A stretch of DNA of 36,270 bases from an uncultured Erysipelotrichaceae bacterium. Lineage in GTDB: Bacteria > Bacillota_I > Bacilli_A > Erysipelotrichales > Erysipelotrichaceae. The notes beneath the pieces are model-generated. The model was not told the DNA's origin. It made no database searches and worked only from the letters and a program-made list of their open reading frames with translations. Position numbers and translations under genes: made by a program. The DNA is taken from positions 1-36,270 of the forward strand of contig CAZUVT010000003.1 in assembly GCA_964623925.1 (NCBI GenBank), given 5' to 3'. This document shows, piece by piece, positions 2,300-16,663 of the stretch (the stretch's first letter is position 1; each line of letters opens with the position of its first letter).

Positions 2300-2328
2300 T
2301 TGACAAGTCAAAATGGCAATGCTATAAT
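2300..2328 (+). promoter_or_regulatory. sigma-A type promoter (TTGACA-17-TATAAT) driving T-box leader/trpB
   Basis: TTGACA at 2300-2305 and TATAAT at 2323-2328, exactly 17 nt apart, read directly from the sequence. Confidence 0.6.
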
Positions 2329-2334
2329 GTACAT

Positions 2335-2617
2335 GAACAAACCGTTGAAGCGGAGATAACGGCAATGATGCCTATACAGAGAGTCTGGGATGCTGAGAAC
2401 CGGGCAAGAAACAAGTTGTCAAATGGACCGCGGAGGGTGCAGTCAAATGTGGTAAATCACAGAGTATTCTGCAACGTTGTAGGCAGACGTAACTTGCCGG
2501 GGATATGTTGGTATCCTGCTAAGCGCATAGGGTCATTCCTATGAAACAAGGTGGCACCGCGGATAAAAGATTTATTCGTCCTTGATAGAAAGCGTTTTTC
2601 TGTCAAGGGCGTTTTTA
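2335..2617 (+). promoter_or_regulatory. T-box riboswitch leader (probable Trp specifier) with intrinsic terminator
   Basis: Conserved T-box sequence AACAAGGTGGCACCGCGG at about 2545-2562. A terminator hairpin (CCTTGATAG...CTGTCAAGG) at 2580-2608 is followed by GCGTTTTTA and overlaps the T-box antiterminator region. An AGAGA box is followed by a UGG at 2386-2388. The downstream gene is trpB. Confidence 0.7.
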
Positions 2618-2680
2618 TTTCTAAACTTCCTTGAAGAAAGAGAAATCAAAGGAGCATTCCTTTATTCAGGAGGTCAAAGA

Positions 2681-2758
2681 ATGAAACATGTCAAACGATG
2701 GTGGCGCATCGCGCCAAATTACAGAACGATCAGAAATGATGAAACCAACCATAAATAA
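2681..2758 (+). CDS. candidate 25-aa leader peptide [25 protein letters not shown] with tandem Trp codons
   Basis: AGGAGG at 2668-2673, 7 nt before ATG 2681. Codons 7 and 8 are both TGG. It lies between the T-box terminator and the trpB RBS. It is too short for the ORF track, so I translated it by hand. Confidence 0.35.
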
Positions 2759-2781
2759 AACGTGAACAGGAGGAAAAAAAT

Positions 2782-4002
2782 ATGAAATTTAACAACATCG
2801 AATTTGACACATACTTAAAAGATTATCCAAACGAAAACGGCTTTTTCGGAAAATACGGCGGATCCTTTATCCCGGAAGAATTGCAGGAAGCAATGGATGA
2901 AATCGCAGAAGCATATAATCGGCTGTCTAAATCCAGTGAATTTATCTCTGAACTAAAACGAATCAGAAAAGAGTTTCAGGGACGTCCTACCCCAATCTCT
3001 CATTTAAAACGGCTATCCGATGAGATCGGAAACGGTGCACAGCTTTATGTCAAGCGCGAAGATTTAAATCATACCGGAGCTCACAAGCTGAATCACTGCA
3101 TGGGTGAAGCTCTTCTTGCCAAATATATGGGAAAGAAAAAAGTCATTGCCGAAACCGGTGCCGGACAACACGGTGTTGCTTTAGCCACGGCTGCTGCTTA
3201 TTTCGGCTTGGAATGTGATATCTACATGGGTGCTGTCGACATCAAGAAACAAGCTCCGAATGTAGCCAGAATGAAAATCCTCGGTGCCCGGGTCATTGAA
3301 GTAACCGATGGATTGCAGACTTTAAAAGAAGCGGTAGATGCTGCCTTTGCAGCTTACTGCAAAGAATATAAAACAGCGATCTACTGCATCGGTTCTGTTG
3401 TAGGACCTCATCCATTCCCGCTTATGGTCCGCGATTTCCAAAGCATCGTCGGTATCGAGGCAAGAGAACAATTTCTTGAAATGACCGGAAATCTTCCGGA
3501 TGCCGTTGTAGCCTGTGTCGGCGGAGGATCCAATGCCATGGGACTTTTCAGTGGTTTCTTAAACGACCCGATCGATATTTACGGAATCGAACCTTTAGGC
3601 AGAGGTACTACTCTAGGCGATCATGCCGCAAGCTTGACTTATGGAAAAGAAGGAATCATGCATGGCTTCAACAGCATTATGCTGAAAGATGAAAATGGTG
3701 ATCCGGCACCGGTCTATTCAGTCGCCAGCGGATTAGATTACCCTTCCTGCGGACCGGAACATGCCTTCCTTCACGATTTAGGAAGAGTAAAATATGATGT
3801 TGTCGATGATGAAGAAACGATCAACGCATTTTATGCTCTATCCAAATTAGAGGGGATCATTCCGGCTATTGAAAGCTCCCATGCCGTTGCCTATGGCATC
3901 AAATTAGCCAAGAAAATGAAAAAAGGAGCAATCCTGATCAATCTTTCCGGCAGGGGTGATAAAGATATGGACTATGTCATCGAACATTACGGAATTCGCT
4001 AG
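2782..4002 (+). CDS. trpB: tryptophan synthase beta chain (TrpB1-like, PLP-dependent)
   Basis: [12 protein letters not shown]-lysine motif, GAGQHGVA and the GGGSNA glycine loop. [12 protein letters not shown]...[14 protein letters not shown] matches the TrpB core. Strong RBS AGGAGGAAAAAAAT. No trpA is adjacent. Confidence 0.9.
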
Positions 4003-4108: not shown

Positions 4109-4417
4109 ATGAAAATTATCAGAACCGATGAAATCGATGCCTTTTTTGAAAGATGTATCCGCAACATGCAAAATGATGCAATGAATGAATATGTCGGCGT
4201 GATCATTCAATCTCCTGAAGAGGAAGAGGAAATAAAACAGGAGTTGCATGACTTAGGCGATCCGGAATTTCAGGGTGATAAAGAAAACTGGCCGTCACTT
4301 TATCTGGACATCGACTACTATACAAAAACACCCTATAACACAAATATCCATTTAGATAAGATTTCCGATCACGGCTTCAGTTTGCCGCAGAGACGATGCC
4401 GGCCCATGAACTTTTGA
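4109..4417 (+). CDS. hypothetical protein (102 aa), acidic
   Basis: AAGGAG RBS 7 nt before the ATG. No recognisable domain. It overlaps the next ORF by 22 nt in a different frame. Confidence 0.4.
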   Translation: MKIIRTDEIDAFFERCIRNMQNDAMNEYVGVIIQSPEEEEEIKQELHDLGDPEFQGDKENWPSLYLDIDYYTKTPYNTNIHLDKISDHGFSLPQRRCRPMNF

Positions 4418-5136
4418 ATATGACCTTTATTCAGCCGGATCCAAATCGCGAATTGAATGATTATATGATCCTTCGCGCCTTTAATAAACCCTATACGGCA
4501 ACAGCGCTTCGGCAGAACGGTGAATTCTGGATGACCGATAATCCGGCAGAAGCCAACACAACTGATCCCTGTGTCGAAAAAGCACATGGAAATGTTCTGA
4601 CTTTTGGTCTTGGGATCGGATACTTTGTTTATATGTGTCTGTTAAAGCCCGAAGTAAGATCCGTAACGGTGGTGGAACTATCCGAATCCGTAATCAAGAT
4701 GTTTAAGAAATACATCCTGCCGCAATTTCCAAAAGACAAGGAAGTCCGGATCATTCACGGCAATGCCTTTGATTATTTCAATCAGGAATTTGTGAATCAG
4801 TTTGATTATACCTTCGTGGATGTCTGGAAAAATCATGAAGATGGTTATGGCATGATTGAAAAAATGCTCGAACAGTATCTGCCGCCTTATGAACAGGTTG
4901 ATTTCTGGATCGAATCTACCTGCTTTGAATTCATCACTAGTATGATCTGTCTTTACTTCAATAACATCTCACAAGGTTTAAAAACTCCAAGAAATCGAAG
5001 ATTTCAGAAACAATATAAAAAGATTCACGCTTATTTTGAGAAAATTGATAAGACCGTGGATCATGTTGATGAATTGAAAAACTACATGTATGATCCGAAG
5101 ATCCTTCGTGAAATCGTATCCATGAATACCAAATAA
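4396..5136 (+). CDS. spermidine synthase-like / class I SAM-MTase-fold protein
   Basis: The pattern VLTFGLGIGY ... VTVVELSESVIKMFKKY ... EVRIIHGNAFDYF ... FDYTFVDVW parallels the aminopropyltransferase (SpeE) motif spacing (GGGDGG-like loop, then VEID, then D/E). The N-terminal tetramerisation region is absent. The RBS is weak. Confidence 0.45.
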   Translation: MPAHELLNMTFIQPDPNRELNDYMILRAFNKPYTATALRQNGEFWMTDNPAEANTTDPCVEKAHGNVLTFGLGIGYFVYMCLLKPEVRSVTVVELSESVIKMFKKYILPQFPKDKEVRIIHGNAFDYFNQEFVNQFDYTFVDVWKNHEDGYGMIEKMLEQYLPPYEQVDFWIESTCFEFITSMICLYFNNISQGLKTPRNRRFQKQYKKIHAYFEKIDKTVDHVDELKNYMYDPKILREIVSMNTK

Positions 5137-7438: not shown

Positions 7439-9349
7439 CTATCGAATGATCGTTCCTTTAGGAAGATCGACTTCTACTACTTTGATTTTTCCATCTGCTT
7501 CTCCGGCTAAGATCATTCCCTGACTTTCCACTCCGCGAAGTTTAGCAGCTGCCAGATTGCTGATGACGACAACTTTCTTACCGACCATCTCTTCCGGCTT
7601 ATAACTGGATGCGATACCACTGACGATCTGACGGGTTTCATAACCCAGATCGATCTGTGATACCAGCAGCTTATCTGCCTTTGGATGCTTTTCACAGGCA
7701 ATGACTTCACCGACTGTCATTTCAACCTTGCCGAAATCATCAATCGTAATTTCCGGTTTTGTCTGCGGCTTTTGGATCTGAGGCTTGCTTTCAGCGACAA
7801 TCTTTTCCAAGACTTCTTTTTCATCCAATCTTGCAAACAGGATCTCTGCTTTATTCAAAGTAATTCCGTTTTCCAGCTGACCAAATGTTCCGACTGTTTC
7901 AAAATCTCTCTTCTCTGTATTCAGCTGATCCAAGATCTTCTTTGAAGTTTCCGGCAAGAACGGCTCCAACAAGACAGCCGAAGTACGGATGCATTCAAGC
8001 AGATTATACAAAACGGTTGCCAGACGAGTTTTTTTGCTTTCATCTTTACCAAGTGTCCAGGGGGTCGTTTCATCGATATACTTATTGCTTCTTCTAAGAA
8101 GGGTGAAGATATCATCGATGGCATCAGCCACACGCAACTGATTCATCTTCTCTTCAACTTTTGCAGGCAAAGAAGCACACATTTCAATCAGTTCTTCATC
8201 AATCGCTTCTTTTTCATTGGTGTTTTCGACTAAACCGCCGAAATACTTATGGCTCATCGTGATCGTACGATTGACTAAGTTTCCAAGAATATTCGCCAAA
8301 TCCGAATTGATGCGTTCAATAATCAATTCATGAGTGACCGTTCCATCTTGGGCAAAAGGCATTTCATGCAGCATGATATATCGAACTGCATCCACACCAA
8401 AATGACGCACAAGATCATCGGCATAGATTACATTTCCCTTGGATTTGCTCATCTTTCCTTCGCCGACCAGCAGCCATGGATGACCGAAAACCTGCTTAGG
8501 AAGTGGCAGATCCAGTGCCATCAGCATGATCGGCCAGTAAATCGTATGGAATCTTAAGATATCCTTTCCAATCAAATGAACATCAGCCGGCCAGTATTTC
8601 TCATAAAGTTCACCGTGATTTCCATCCATATCAAACCCCAATCCGGTGATATAGTTGGATAAGGCATCGATCCAGACATAGACAACATGACGATCATCAA
8701 AGTCAACCGGAACGCCCCATTTGAAAGAAGTTCTGGATACACACAGATCCTGCAAGCCCGGCTTGATGAAATTGTTGATCATTTCATTCTTTCTCGATTC
8801 AGGCTGAATAAAATCCGGATGTTCCTCGATATGTTTCAATAAACGGTCTGCATATTTGCTCATCTTAAAGAAATAAGCTTCTTCTTTAGCTTTCTGAACA
8901 GGCCTTCCGCAATCCGGACATTTTCCGTCAACCAACTGAGATTCGGTATAGAAAGATTCACAAGGAGTGCAATACCACCCTTCATATTCTCCCTTGTAAA
9001 TATCGCCCTGCTCATACAATTTCTTAAACATCTTTTGAACCTGCTTTTTATGATATGCATCTGTCGTTCTCATGAAACGATCATATGAGGTATTCATCAG
9101 ATCCCAGATATCCTTGATCTGTCCTGCCGCATTATCTACAAATGCCTGTGGTTCAAGGTTAGCAGCTTTCGCCTTCTCTTCGATTTTTTGACCATGCTCA
9201 TCTGTTCCGGTCTGGAAATAGACATCATAGCCTGCATCTCTTTTATAGCGGGCAATCGCATCGGCAAGTACGATCTCATATGTATTTCCGATATGCGGCT
9301 TTCCGGATGCATAGGCAATTGCCGTTGTAATATAATACTTTCCTTTCAT
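7439..9349 (-). CDS. metG: methionyl-tRNA synthetase with C-terminal tRNA-binding (EMAP-like) domain
   Basis: HIGH motif (GKPHIGN), KMSKS motif (KMSKSKGN) and a zinc knuckle CPDCG. The C-terminal about 100 aa forms an OB-fold tRNA-binding domain. Confidence 0.95.
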   Translation of the reverse strand: MKGKYYITTAIAYASGKPHIGNTYEIVLADAIARYKRDAGYDVYFQTGTDEHGQKIEEKAKAANLEPQAFVDNAAGQIKDIWDLMNTSYDRFMRTTDAYHKKQVQKMFKKLYEQGDIYKGEYEGWYCTPCESFYTESQLVDGKCPDCGRPVQKAKEEAYFFKMSKYADRLLKHIEEHPDFIQPESRKNEMINNFIKPGLQDLCVSRTSFKWGVPVDFDDRHVVYVWIDALSNYITGLGFDMDGNHGELYEKYWPADVHLIGKDILRFHTIYWPIMLMALDLPLPKQVFGHPWLLVGEGKMSKSKGNVIYADDLVRHFGVDAVRYIMLHEMPFAQDGTVTHELIIERINSDLANILGNLVNRTITMSHKYFGGLVENTNEKEAIDEELIEMCASLPAKVEEKMNQLRVADAIDDIFTLLRRSNKYIDETTPWTLGKDESKKTRLATVLYNLLECIRTSAVLLEPFLPETSKKILDQLNTEKRDFETVGTFGQLENGITLNKAEILFARLDEKEVLEKIVAESKPQIQKPQTKPEITIDDFGKVEMTVGEVIACEKHPKADKLLVSQIDLGYETRQIVSGIASSYKPEEMVGKKVVVISNLAAAKLRGVESQGMILAGEADGKIKVVEVDLPKGTIIR

Positions 9350-9384: not shown

Positions 9385-9603
9385 TCCTAAAAACAAAAAA
9401 GCGCCTGCTAAGGACGCTTTTGCGTGGTACCACCTTACTTTACATTCAATTGAATGCCTCGTGTCAGATAACGCCTTCCCGCGGTCAAGCCTACCTATCG
9501 ACTCAACTGTTCAAGGACCATGTTCACATTCTGTTTCTATAGATTCTCACCGGCCATCTACTCTCTTAAAGAAGCACAATGCTACTCTTCCCATCATTAC
9601 ATT
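9385..9603 (-). promoter_or_regulatory. T-box riboswitch leader of metG with terminator
   Basis: The minus-strand sequence AAGGTGGTACCACGC (plus 9422-9434) matches the T-box core. Immediately 3' is a stem followed by UUUUUUGUUUUU (plus 9391-9420). Confidence 0.6.
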
Positions 9604-9609
9604 TACTAC

Positions 9610-13862: not shown

Positions 13863-15368
13863 TTATATAGAACATGCAACAATCAAAAATGGAATAATGA
13901 ATATTAGGATAAAAAACGATACGACGAAAACGACCCAACCAGCTCCTGAACTTTCAGAATCACGTCTAATTGCTTTCAGTTTACATTCTTCTGCAAGTTT
14001 TTTAGAATCCTTATAATCCACAATAGAATTAAATGTCTTCTCTAATTCTTCATAATCATATTTTGAAACGGCTGTTTCCATCGCTTTAACAGCTTCGGCA
14101 TAGATTTTCTCATTGCGCATCTCTTGTGCCTGATCTACATATCCTTGAATTTCATTTGCCAATTTTGGATCAGCATACAACATCAACTTCTTATAACTGG
14201 TTTTCGTACTGAAATCGATTTTTGAGTTGACCAATTCCTCTTTTTTATTGACATGGACATTGGCCATGATTTTATACAAATAAATGAGTGGATTTTGCGG
14301 ATCTTGATCTAATGCTTTTTCACAATACTCATTCGCTTCATCCCATTCTTCAAAATTTAAAAAGATTTCAATTCGTTTAAGTAAATTTTCCACTTTCGCT
14401 TCCTCAGTAAGATCCTTACTCTCTCCTGAATCATGATTTACTTTAATTTCAGTTTTGATTTCTTTTTTCTCATCTTTTGCACAGATCTTTTTAATTCCTC
14501 GAATCAGATCCTGCATAAAGCCCAATTTTGACATATCCTGAGCCTGCAAATGCGAGAATTCTTCCGGAAGATCATAAGGATCCATGTCCCGATAAGCCGG
14601 AATCAGTGTCTTCTTTTCTCCTCGCTTGATCAATTCCAGATAGCGGCTCCATTCATTCTTGACCCATACCGAATTCAAATGTTCTACGTTCGTCCCGATT
14701 ACAACCATGACTTTAGCACTGTGTAAAGCAGAGAATATGCATGATTCGTAATTCTCACCCAATTTATTTTCTAATGTAATTCGTGAGAAAAAGACTTTAA
14801 ATCCTTCATCTTTCAGTTCATAATACAATTCATTGGCCAAGACCGAATCTTTAGTTCTATTGCCTTCCTTATCACTTTCTTTATAACAGATAAATACATC
14901 ATACGGAGATTCTTTTTGAGAAAGTACCAAGATCTGTTTGCGGATATTTTCGATTTCATTTCCTGATTCTTCATAAAGCACTTTTGAATCTTCATCTGCG
15001 TATTCAATCGCTTTCTTATAATCATCATCTTCCAGTAAAGATTGTACTTGCAAGCGATGGATCGTCGGTATCCTTCTCTTAGTTTGCGGATCTTCAACAT
15101 ATTCGACTCCATATCGACACAAAACAAGTGACCAATAAGCCAAAGCCTCTTTTGAATCTTCCAATAAGATCTGCTCATATAGATTCATAGCGCGATCATA
15201 TTCATGAAGTCGAAGAAAATGATCTGCACGATCAAATAAGTTTATTTTTCTATCATTCCCCATCTTAGGAAGTGCCTGCTTAATGCCGCAGCTATCACAG
15301 ACTCCAACCACATCTCCCTCTTTAAATTCCAACTTTCCCCCACAAATCTTACACTTCAACTCAACCAT
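13863..15368 (-). CDS. zinc-ribbon / TPR-like / TIR-domain protein with C-terminal transmembrane anchor
   Basis: N-terminal CxxC...CxxC (CKICGG...CDSCG). TIR core YDVFICYKESD ... SVWVKNEWSRYLEL, including a W-x-x-x-E motif. The C-terminus is a hydrophobic helix WVVFVVSFFILIFIIPFLIVA. RBS GGGAG. Confidence 0.7.
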   Translation of the reverse strand: MVELKCKICGGKLEFKEGDVVGVCDSCGIKQALPKMGNDRKINLFDRADHFLRLHEYDRAMNLYEQILLEDSKEALAYWSLVLCRYGVEYVEDPQTKRRIPTIHRLQVQSLLEDDDYKKAIEYADEDSKVLYEESGNEIENIRKQILVLSQKESPYDVFICYKESDKEGNRTKDSVLANELYYELKDEGFKVFFSRITLENKLGENYESCIFSALHSAKVMVVIGTNVEHLNSVWVKNEWSRYLELIKRGEKKTLIPAYRDMDPYDLPEEFSHLQAQDMSKLGFMQDLIRGIKKICAKDEKKEIKTEIKVNHDSGESKDLTEEAKVENLLKRIEIFLNFEEWDEANEYCEKALDQDPQNPLIYLYKIMANVHVNKKEELVNSKIDFSTKTSYKKLMLYADPKLANEIQGYVDQAQEMRNEKIYAEAVKAMETAVSKYDYEELEKTFNSIVDYKDSKKLAEECKLKAIRRDSESSGAGWVVFVVSFFILIFIIPFLIVACSI

Positions 15369-15399
15369 TTCTATTTCTCCCTTTCCATTCTAATTACAT

Positions 15400-16104
15400 T
15401 TATTTCTTATCCTTTAGTGTTGATAAAATATTTTGAACATTTGATTCTTTTATAACATCAGGATATTTTTTATCAAATTCAATTAAAACATTTTGAGTTT
15501 CAATTTCCGAAGATCGGACAGATTCATAAATCTCTATAAAATTCTTATTGATAAATGCTTTCTCAATAAATATTCTTGAATCTGCCGAAAAATCATCCCA
15601 TCCCCCATAAAGGTTTTGTACTGCTGTATCGATCATTTCAAATGTAATCGGCATATTTCTTTTTTCATGTTCTGCAAGTATTCCAACAATATCTGATAAA
15701 TCGTTTTTATATATTCTTCCCGCCTTTAATTTCATGGCAATTAAATATTCTCCGGTAACTGTTCTAATTGAAAGCACATTTGAAAATGTTTTATAATATG
15801 TGGAAAACTCATCTAATTTCATCGAATAGGAACTTGTATTTATAAAATCTGTATTGATCCATTCTTTTGGCAAATCAAATTTTTCTCCTACAACATTAAT
15901 GGCTTCTTTCATTGCAGAAGAAGCATAGATAATTGCATCGATATCGGTAGTCATATCTCTAAAACCATAGTTTGTCAAAATTGCAGCACCACCAACCAAA
16001 ATAATTTCGGCTGGCATGATCTTTCCATTGCGTTTTCTAAATTCTTTAGCCAAATCTTTAAGTATTAACTCTAAATTCTCTTTAGTAAACTTTCTATGCG
16101 ACAT
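15400..16104 (-). CDS. AbiEii-like (DUF1814-type) nucleotidyltransferase
   Basis: VGGAAILTNYGFRDMTTDIDAI matches the GG-x14-DID spacing and the R-x-T-x-D-I-D signature of AbiEii/Pol-beta NTases. The start overlaps the upstream gene by 11 nt. RBS GAGGT. Confidence 0.5.
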   Translation of the reverse strand: MSHRKFTKENLELILKDLAKEFRKRNGKIMPAEIILVGGAAILTNYGFRDMTTDIDAIIYASSAMKEAINVVGEKFDLPKEWINTDFINTSSYSMKLDEFSTYYKTFSNVLSIRTVTGEYLIAMKLKAGRIYKNDLSDIVGILAEHEKRNMPITFEMIDTAVQNLYGGWDDFSADSRIFIEKAFINKNFIEIYESVRSSEIETQNVLIEFDKKYPDVIKESNVQNILSTLKDKK

Positions 16105-16663
16105 TTCTTACCTCGCTTTCAATAATATTAAAACGCAAGAACTCTGGAATTGCTTCAGATATGGCTTTTTTCTTTATGTCATCATCATTCATCACATGTG
16201 ACATCACCAAGACACTCTTTGGAAAAAGATAATCTTTTAGTTTTGCATTCCGGATATATTCATAATCTGTGCATAATGGAATATCGTTTTCTCTGCTCAA
16301 ATAATCAAGCATAGCAAGAAGATAAAAACATTCAGGAAAATACTTTTTATTGTAATATTCAAGTATTTTATTTTTGCTCAGTAACTCAATTATAAAATCA
16401 ATATCTCCCAATGCTTTCAGTCTATGACAGACATTGCTTTTAAAAAGTTCAAAATCCACTCGATCATATAAATAGGATTCGATAAGTTGTTCCATGGAAA
16501 TACCAAGAGTTTTAGAAATACGATAAATCGTTTCTCCGGTACATTTATTCAAATGTACTTTTCCATTACAAATATCGTTGATCGTTGTATACGCAATTCC
16601 ACTCTCCTTGGATAATCGATATTTGGTGATCTTTTTTTTCTCCATCAATTCATTAATTGTCAT
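16094..16663 (-). CDS. Xre-family HTH protein with about 130-aa C-terminal domain (putative regulator/antitoxin partner of the NTase)
   Basis: N-terminal HTH (ITKYRLSKESGIAYTTINDICNGKV). Translationally coupled to the NTase gene. Confidence 0.55.
   Translation of the reverse strand: MTINELMEKKKITKYRLSKESGIAYTTINDICNGKVHLNKCTGETIYRISKTLGISMEQLIESYLYDRVDFELFKSNVCHRLKALGDIDFIIELLSKNKILEYYNKKYFPECFYLLAMLDYLSRENDIPLCTDYEYIRNAKLKDYLFPKSVLVMSHVMNDDDIKKKAISEAIPEFLRFNIIESEVRNVA

Follow-up and report, generated by a model that had tools for sequence, protein, structure and literature searches.

A stretch of 36,270 nucleotides (nt) from an uncultured Erysipelotrichaceae bacterium (contig CAZUVT010000003.1, forward strand; hereafter the window) carries trpB, the gene for the tryptophan synthase beta chain, behind a T-box leader and a terminator. 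Between the terminator and trpB lies a short upstream open reading frame (uORF) that contains two consecutive tryptophan (Trp) codons. The locus raises the question of whether this uORF adds a translational layer of Trp sensing to that of the T-box or is there by coincidence; the earlier note on this sequence had left both options standing. The case for the uORF presented here is comparative throughout. It suggests that the uORF is very probably a functional, translated Trp-sensing leader. The best explanation overall would be a sensitised hungry-codon leader peptide, which would act as a second, ribosome-based Trp checkpoint behind the T-box of an orphan trpB; we put the chances of this more specific explanation at about even.

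Conservation of the uORF in related trpB leaders

An exact look-up of the TrpB of the window in public assemblies returned no record, and the nearest relatives are 88% identical. For comparison, 80 loci were taken from genomes, each from a different GTDB species, and 80 from metagenomes; the TrpB that they encode is 72-88% identical. The usable loci, including the window, numbered 146, and in 106 of them a T-box motif lies no more than 400 nt upstream of trpB. In 76 of these 106 loci (window included), a short open reading frame (ORF) led by a Shine-Dalgarno (SD) sequence and encoding a basic residue followed by R-W-R was found between the terminator and trpB. The 76 uORFs encode 67 distinct peptides. 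When the observed spacers between terminator and trpB were shuffled in 200 trials, the mean number of such uORFs was 0.57 and the maximum was 4. The uORF is thus conserved far too strongly to be coincidental, and with chance rejected a translational layer of Trp sensing appears to be the best reading of the compared sequences.

The consensus peptide is M-(x)-L/I/F-L-T-K-R-W-R, with a core of the form hydrophobic-hydrophobic-T-K-R-W-R. Among the 69 non-redundant uORFs, 58 start with ATG and 49 have a GGAGG SD, the modal spacing being 8 nt. The Trp residue is invariant in the family; it lies at codon 5-8 in 64 of the 69, and the residue that follows it is Arg in 65. The length of the uORF ranges from 7 to 39 residues (median 14). 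The earlier note had proposed a check of the uORF and its tandem Trp codons (WW) in orthologous trpB leaders. While the uORF core is widely conserved, as described above, the tandem WW was found in only 13 of 68 non-redundant uORFs. Judged from these sequences, the invariant feature is one UGG in a K-R-W-R core, not WW.

At the nucleotide level, 68 loci carry the core, and in 63 of them an SD-led start in frame with the core was recorded downstream of a detected T-box. Three of the remaining five (L053, L119 and L123) have an in-frame ATG with no T-box detected nearby, L024 is a false match inside a T-box, and L076 has no start codon.

With the Trp codon as the anchor of a codon alignment of the uORFs, TTA, CTT, CTG, CTA, TTG and CTC are found at the two Leu positions, and all four ACN codons (ACA/ACC/ACT/ACG) at the Thr position. 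The Lys position is either AAA/AAG or is occupied by Arg instead (AGA, AGG, CGG, CGT). This synonymous variation at Leu, Thr and Lys is the mark of selection at the level of the peptide. A local RNA structure common to the uORF cores was rejected, RNAalifold having found 0 consensus pairs over 61 aligned core sequences. Past W-R the tail is free in both sequence and length, and the distance from Trp to the stop codon varies from 1 to about 30 codons. Stops arrive sooner in the uORF frame than in the other two (median 5 versus 9-10 codons, p = 5e-4). Selection for long uORFs or for a fixed stop was rejected on this ground.

The searches of Pfam and NCBIfam with the uORF peptide gave no family match even at E<=10, and no Rfam model matched. 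As far as sequence can tell, the peptide is an unannotated family, which differs from rtpLP, the leader peptide of the Bacillus subtilis anti-TRAP operon, as compared by description. The hosts of the uORF are labelled Lachnospiraceae, Oscillospiraceae, Acutalibacteraceae, Christensenellales, Ruminococcus and Saccharofermentanales, among others, and come mostly from gut or rumen samples.

The TrpB of the window contains 0 Trp residues. TrpB is likewise Trp-free in 74 of 75 uORF-bearing relatives and in 70 of 80 other relatives. The uORF therefore holds the only Trp codons of such a transcript, and the enzyme can be made under complete Trp starvation.

Codon choice around the Trp codon

The Arg codon before Trp is CGA in 57 of 62 uORFs, and CGA accounts for 2.7% of the 1175 Arg codons in trpB of the same loci. 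The Arg codon after Trp is CGN in 65 of 65 uORFs and never AGR; AGR makes up 52% of the Arg codons in trpB. Two designs can be distinguished. In the uORFs with a single Trp codon, CGA precedes UGG in 53 of 55. In the WW uORFs, CGA is found in 3 of 13, and in 12 of 13 a GC hairpin begins within the second UGG. Every uORF without CGA has a post-Trp hairpin. The association of CGA and of the hairpin with the number of Trp codons gave Fisher p values of 6e-8 and 2e-7, respectively, in a test that ignores phylogeny. The uORF of the window combines CGA, WW and the hairpin.

The 3' arm of the hairpin, GCGCC, occurs in three reading frames, in which it encodes RIAP, RFAP, RLCA or RALRR. Alternative stems are also found, among them CGUCCC-GGCG-GGGACG in L031, L107 and L133. 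In the alignment of the post-Trp hairpin, 97% of the cells are paired and there is one compensatory change, a count not above that of shuffled alignments. The hairpin is supported by its independence of the reading frame and by the occurrence of alternative stem sequences.

On this pattern, the CGA codon, the second UGG and the hairpin look like interchangeable stall enhancers, each of which would lengthen the dwell of the ribosome at the sensing codon. In yeast, a CGA in the P-site is read via an I:A wobble that distorts the mRNA and disfavours decoding in the A-site (bioRxiv 10.1101/755652). In the inhibitory CGA pairs of yeast, a P-site CGA read by tRNA-Arg(ICG) makes the next codon hard to decode; in the uORF, it is the sensing UGG that directly follows CGA. 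The yeast effect, however, was shown on eukaryotic ribosomes for CGA-CGA and CGA-CCG, whereas the pair is here CGA-UGG in bacteria. We infer by analogy that the wobble effect may carry over to bacterial ribosomes.

Several other features of the uORF region were observed. A second ORF of 25 codons (2688-2765, + strand) overlaps the uORF of the window in another frame; its start lies 7 nt downstream of that of the uORF. The conserved CGAUGG of single-Trp relatives yields an out-of-frame AUG. The alternative frames over the uORF have neither an SD of their own nor a conserved length. An A/C-rich motif, AAACCAAYC, is located at 2742-2750 in the window. It occurs 33-57 nt upstream of the trpB ATG in 14 of 70 uORF loci and in 4 of 76 other loci, and is listed in L002, L003, L012, L016, L022, L037, L063, L081, L082, L087 and L097. 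The motif is present whether it falls inside or outside the uORF, and the CCAACCA sequence is complementary to UGGUGG with one bulge. Long-range pairing of the Trp core with the spacer that follows it, CCAACCA included, was not enriched and was rejected (mean z +0.13; 10% of loci at p<=0.1).

The trpB leader of the window and its gene context

The earlier note had recognised a Trp T-box with a terminator ahead of trpB, and a 25-codon uORF with tandem UGG codons behind a well-spaced AGGAGG. Both were recovered in the present analysis (Table 1). The T-box matches RF00230 over its full length, although its score is below the Rfam gathering score of 93. For this reason, the T-box of metS was the only one in the window that a default Rfam scan picked up. 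The metS T-box (9407-9606, - strand) scores 124 bits, above the Rfam threshold, and has the Met specifier AUG; it precedes a methionyl-tRNA synthetase gene (7439-9349, - strand; Pfam tRNA-synt_1g). No uORF was noticed ahead of that gene, though no search aimed at one was made. In the alignment to RF00230, the specifier loop of the trpB T-box reads CAA-A-UGG-A, with UGG at 2424-2426. Since this UGG and the AUG of the metS T-box occupy identical model columns, the trpB T-box is taken to be specific for Trp. The specifier CAAAUGGAC is kept in relatives.

Mutually exclusive antiterminator and terminator structures with a U tract, as expected of a T-box, are present in the window. In ten relatives (L002, L003, L005, L006, L012, L013, L016, L037, L048 and L066), Rfam found full-length T-boxes with scores of 56-90 bits and E values of 1e-9 to 1e-18. 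The T-boxes of two further relatives exceed the threshold, with 95 and 110 bits. By their sequences, the Trp T-boxes of this trpB clade are divergent but complete, and most of them would escape standard annotation.

Table 1. Positions of the features of the trpB leader and of trpB in the window.
Feature	Positions	Strand	Remarks
Sigma-70-type promoter	2300-2328	+	TTGACA-17-TATAAT, extended TG; 12/12 consensus matches
T-box leader, Stem I to antiterminator	2336-2586	+	RF00230, model positions 1-219; 87.6 bits, E 1.3e-19
T-box sequence GGUGGCACCGCGG (also given as GGTGGCACCGCGG)	2550-2562	+	UGGC bulge
Intrinsic terminator and U tract	2577-2621 (stem-loop 2577-2611)	+	16 pairs, then TTTTTATTTC
Pyrimidine-rich segment CUUCCUUGA	2626-2654	+	Can pair with SD-like UCAAAGGAG or with the uORF SD
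uORF Shine-Dalgarno AGGAGG	2668-2673	+	7 nt before ATG
uORF (leader peptide)	2681-2758	+	25 codons and TAA; ATG at 2681, TAA at 2756-2758
Putative sensor core CGA-UGG-UGG-CGC	2696-2707	+	CGA 2696-2698, tandem UGG 2699-2704, then Arg CGN
Predicted GC hairpin UGGCGC-AUC-GCGCCA	2702-2716	+	Begins within the second Trp codon; -9.5 kcal/mol
trpB Shine-Dalgarno AGGAGG	2768-2773	+	9 nt past the uORF stop, 8 nt before ATG
trpB, tryptophan synthase beta chain	2782-4002	+	TIGR00263, 531.1 bits (cut-off 392.45); PALP domain

The AGGAGG of the uORF comes about 55 nt after the terminator. The CAGGAGG heptamer that the earlier note had described as common to the two SD sequences is indeed found at both sites (2667-2673 and 2767-2773), but it is merely the SD consensus, and its leading C is not kept in relatives. 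The uORF SD of the window is predicted to be paired (unpaired probability 0.00). An equivalent of the hairpin at 2626-2654 is present in some relatives and absent from others. In L002, L003, L008, L015 and L022, a near copy of the 5' arm of the terminator (CCUUUGAC-like) follows the terminator, and such copies are common in these leaders. The copy pairs with the SD-like UCAAAGGAG or with the uORF SD itself. A U-rich run after the hairpin of the copy, resembling a second terminator, was seen in L002, L003 and L022. A three-way switch among the 3' arm of the terminator, the anti-SD copy and the uORF SD was considered and rejected, the accessibility of the uORF SD predicted by folding being 0.31 in the terminator state and 0.30 in the antiterminator state.

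No other trp gene, trpA included, was found in the 36-kb window. In the relatives, the ten downstream genes that were checked are unrelated to one another and to Trp synthesis. The trpB gene is an orphan gene, which probably serves indole salvage. Indole salvage has been predicted for gut bacteria in which the final step of the Trp pathway is all that is retained (PMC9026213; PMC11085991 for Bifidobacterium).

Two relatives show different arrangements of the leader. In L047 (1334-3465), the order is T-box, uORF (MILLTKRWRRLF), a gene for an ECF transporter S-component, and trpB. In L053 (2090-4221), the T-box is followed by the ECF S gene, a degenerate uORF (MFIMSKRWCF) and trpB. The S-component was assigned by PF07155 (E 7.7e-34), and the transporter is probably an importer of tryptophan or of an indole-related compound. 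These two arrangements show that the uORF module is separable both from the terminator and from the ribosome-binding site of trpB.

Downstream of trpB in the window, the region 4109-5136 (+ strand) contains an ORF of 102 amino acids with no family match and an overlapping ORF of 246 amino acids, the latter with weak, sub-threshold similarity to methyltransferases of the spermidine synthase type. At 13863-16663 (- strand), a TIR-domain protein with TPR repeats (501 amino acids) adjoins a DUF6036 nucleotidyltransferase and a helix-turn-helix protein of the Cro/C1 type. This cluster may be a defence or toxin-antitoxin-like module.

Possible output of the uORF and its meaning

The hungry-codon explanation can be described as a course of events. 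The T-box, the anatomy of which is visible in the window and the function of which is taken from its family, would permit read-through by RNA polymerase only when tRNA-Trp is uncharged. A ribosome would then start on the uORF, which has a strong SD and an AUG, and would meet the only Trp codon or codons of the transcript at codons 5-8. If Trp-tRNA-Trp is scarce, the ribosome would park at UGG. The logic would be that of the B. subtilis anti-TRAP operon with rtpLP, the closest known system, in which a T-box likewise works in tandem with ribosome stalling that depends on tRNA (PMC10327191, PMC4027176). The codon statistics suggest that the parking is sensitised by the rare CGA in the P-site or by two UGG codons together with the GC hairpin, both of which occur in the window. 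The conserved residues of the peptide core may be there to hold the short peptidyl-tRNA on the ribosome. In the least certain step, the ribosome parked behind the T-box terminator would act as a 5' roadblock, or occupancy signal, that keeps the Trp-free trpB mRNA alive and translatable. If Trp-tRNA is plentiful, the ribosome would run to the nearby stop and leave, and leaky or outdated read-through transcripts would be quickly silenced and decay. In the long form of the uORF found in the window, the terminating ribosome may also briefly occlude the trpB SD in the manner of rtpLP.

The 5' roadblock as the output of the uORF is a tentative proposal by analogy, in which our confidence is low. In B. 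subtilis, long RNA downstream is stabilised by a ribosome that stalls close to the 5' end, strong SD sequences have a stabilising effect, and processing of T-box leaders takes place in AU-rich regions (PMC3997798); for a T-box-controlled operon, decay is described in PMC7913692. In the ermC and ermA leaders, an early stall in a 5'-proximal ORF that has a strong SD shields the mRNA behind it (PMC3997798), and the same is proposed here by analogy. The stall signal there, however, is a macrolide together with the peptide, whereas here it would presumably be the lack of Trp-tRNA, and no SD-sequestering hairpin that stalling would open is predicted in the trpB leaders. An erm-like unmasking of the trpB SD was rejected: its mean predicted accessibility over 49 loci was 0.49 against 0.51 in the comparison with and without a ribosome at Trp.

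It is worth noting that several points weigh against the explanation that we prefer. The roadblock is favoured because other outputs were eliminated as general mechanisms and because of the analogy with ermC, and is not read from the sequence itself. The uORF is absent from 30 of the 106 trpB loci with a T-box, in three of which the terminator stands directly before the SD; it is therefore dispensable. A plain hungry-codon sensor needs neither the conserved L-L-T-K-R before Trp nor the Arg after it. In L053, the uORF is located between the ECF S-component gene and trpB, away from the 5' end. The statistics of the uORF ignore phylogeny, and the effect of CGA was demonstrated in yeast, that is, outside bacteria (bioRxiv 10.1101/755652).

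Among the rival explanations, an output of the rtpLP type is unlikely. In that case, with Trp-tRNA available, a ribosome completing the uORF at a stop beside the trpB SD would block initiation, and a stall at UGG, far upstream, would leave the SD free. The rtpLP peptide is reportedly ten codons long with three Trp codons, and the terminating ribosome is said to occlude the downstream SD. In PMC10327191 and PMC4027176, which cite Chen & Yanofsky (2003, Science 301:211; 2004, Mol Cell 13:703), the anti-TRAP operon is described as combining a T-box with tRNA-dependent ribosome stalling, and PMC10327191 (refs 21 and 22) supplies a published precedent for occlusion. The leader of rtpA-ycbK and the present one are alike in that a Trp T-box is followed by a short ORF with Trp codons between the terminator and the regulated gene. 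The regulated gene, however, is there that of anti-TRAP and here an orphan trpB, and the uORF here usually has one Trp in a conserved L-L-T-K-R-W-R with CGA. The window itself is a borderline case: with 9 nt between the stop and the trpB SD, a terminating ribosome and an initiating 30S would have overlapping footprints, and in twelve long-form relatives the uORF ends 23-31 nt ahead of the trpB ATG. In most uORFs, however, the stop lies 36-108 nt ahead of trpB, and about six uORFs run into the SD or the start codon of trpB, in an arrangement that resembles coupling. Moreover, the in-frame stops are early, the uORF of L047 precedes a gene other than trpB, and the conserved part of the uORF is its 5' core and not its end. 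Since the position of the stop is not conserved, occlusion of the SD cannot be the conserved function; likewise, with a variable distance from stop to SD, the rtpLP output cannot be general in this family.

It is also conceivable, but quite unlikely, that the uORF is a sequence-specific arrest module, in which L-L-T-K-R-W with an incoming Arg-tRNA stalls the ribosome either intrinsically or in response to a small molecule, for instance indole or free tryptophan. Five or six residues are conserved at the amino-acid level despite synonymous codon changes, Trp lies at a short fixed distance from the N-terminus, and Arg nearly always follows it. R-W-R fits the basic-x-basic pattern of macrolide-dependent arrest, and an orphan TrpB is useful only when indole is present. 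In Firmicutes, moreover, the peptide sequence governs ribosome-dependent events on short ORFs (PMC12407103). Once the T-box is open, however, the ribosome should already be stuck at UGG for want of Trp-tRNA, so that a step after Trp would rarely be reached. The preference for CGA over other Arg codons points to decoding kinetics rather than to the identity of the residue, and WW forms carry His, Leu or Ile in place of the Arg before Trp. No resemblance to TnaC (PMC8429421) and no match to a peptide family were found. TnaC responds to free L-Trp and depends on Trp12, Asp16 and Pro24 at fixed spacing, with 12 residues from the Trp to the C-terminal Pro; the stall is at its stop codon and blocks Rho (PMC8429421). 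The likeness to TnaC suggested in the earlier note does extend to a short leader peptide with a Trp residue, functionally essential in TnaC (PMC8429421), ahead of a gene of indole/tryptophan interconversion. It fails in that the distance from Trp to the stop is free along with the whole tail, Asp and Pro are not conserved, and the regulated gene is biosynthetic. A particular form of the arrest idea, which we regard as improbable, is that L-L-T-K-R-W-R and the tRNA-Arg(ICG) on a P-site CGA together make up a new arrest module of Clostridia, either a sensor of indole or free Trp combined with the T-box in AND logic, or an amplifier of the starvation stall. If true, the amplifier version would mean that peptide, codon pair and hairpin are co-selected, and the sensor version would mean an AND gate for an indole-salvage enzyme.

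A negative or processing role, in which the stall at the uORF triggers a Rae1-like endonucleolytic cleavage at the rear of the ribosome that separates the T-box leader from the trpB mRNA or destabilises the message, is very unlikely. Rae1 cuts 12 nt upstream of ribosomes stalled on short ORFs, depending on the peptide sequence (PMC12407103). With Trp at codon 7-8, such a cut would fall within the uORF, and the spacer is AU-rich (A 40%, T 29%). Destabilisation of trpB mRNA during Trp starvation, however, contradicts both the logic of the T-box and the Trp-free TrpB, and the uORF has no sequence similarity to the known Rae1 target peptide. Classical attenuation or Rho-dependent polarity, by which translation of the uORF would control a second terminator or the loading of Rho before trpB, is extremely unlikely. 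The Trp codons in a short leader ORF do recall trpL of Escherichia coli (Rfam Trp_leader), which is likewise SD-led, with one or more regulatory Trp codons, and placed upstream of a trp gene; the spacer is unstructured, with slightly more C than G. Nevertheless, a terminator-like hairpin between the Trp codon and trpB was found in 0 of 70 loci, and a second terminator was rejected on that count. No Rfam match to Trp_leader was obtained, the terminator and antiterminator hairpins that follow trpL are missing here, and the conserved peptide sequence is atypical for an attenuator. A Rho rut site was also rejected, the spacer being A/U-rich with only a weak bias of C over G (17% versus 14%), and pairing of the core with the spacer, as given above, is not enriched. 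The least credible explanation is that the uORF is untranslated and represents a non-coding RNA motif or a chance ORF. It is true that CGAUGGCG is conserved at the nucleotide level and that folding often predicts a paired uORF SD (mean unpaired probability 0.31). Against this, essentially all loci with the core have a properly spaced SD and an in-frame start, codons vary synonymously, no consensus structure is found, and the number of uORFs far exceeds that in the shuffled spacers.

The sensitised hungry-codon leader thus stays the preferred explanation, at the strength given at the outset. A literature search found no description of a uORF behind a trpB T-box. To our knowledge, only the B. 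subtilis anti-TRAP operon has been characterised as a tandem of a T-box and a leader peptide with Trp codons. Bacillota trp operons commonly use tandem T-boxes for double sensing (PMC12452182). The present leader would be similar in having two serial Trp-dependent checkpoints, except that the second is an ORF and not a tRNA-binding RNA.

Standard annotation overlooks this regulatory unit altogether, since its T-boxes score below the threshold and gene callers do not pick up so short a uORF. Its design features can be quantified: the peptide core, the near-invariant rare CGA, the hairpin that seems to replace CGA, and the Trp-free enzyme. These features provide testable hypotheses on how a hungry-codon sensor is tuned and on whether an I:A wobble in the P-site impairs A-site decoding in bacteria. 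If the explanation holds, the uORF would represent a second and much more widespread tandem system, present in gut and rumen Clostridia of dozens of species-level lineages, and the orphan trpB downstream of it probably turns microbially produced indole back into tryptophan.

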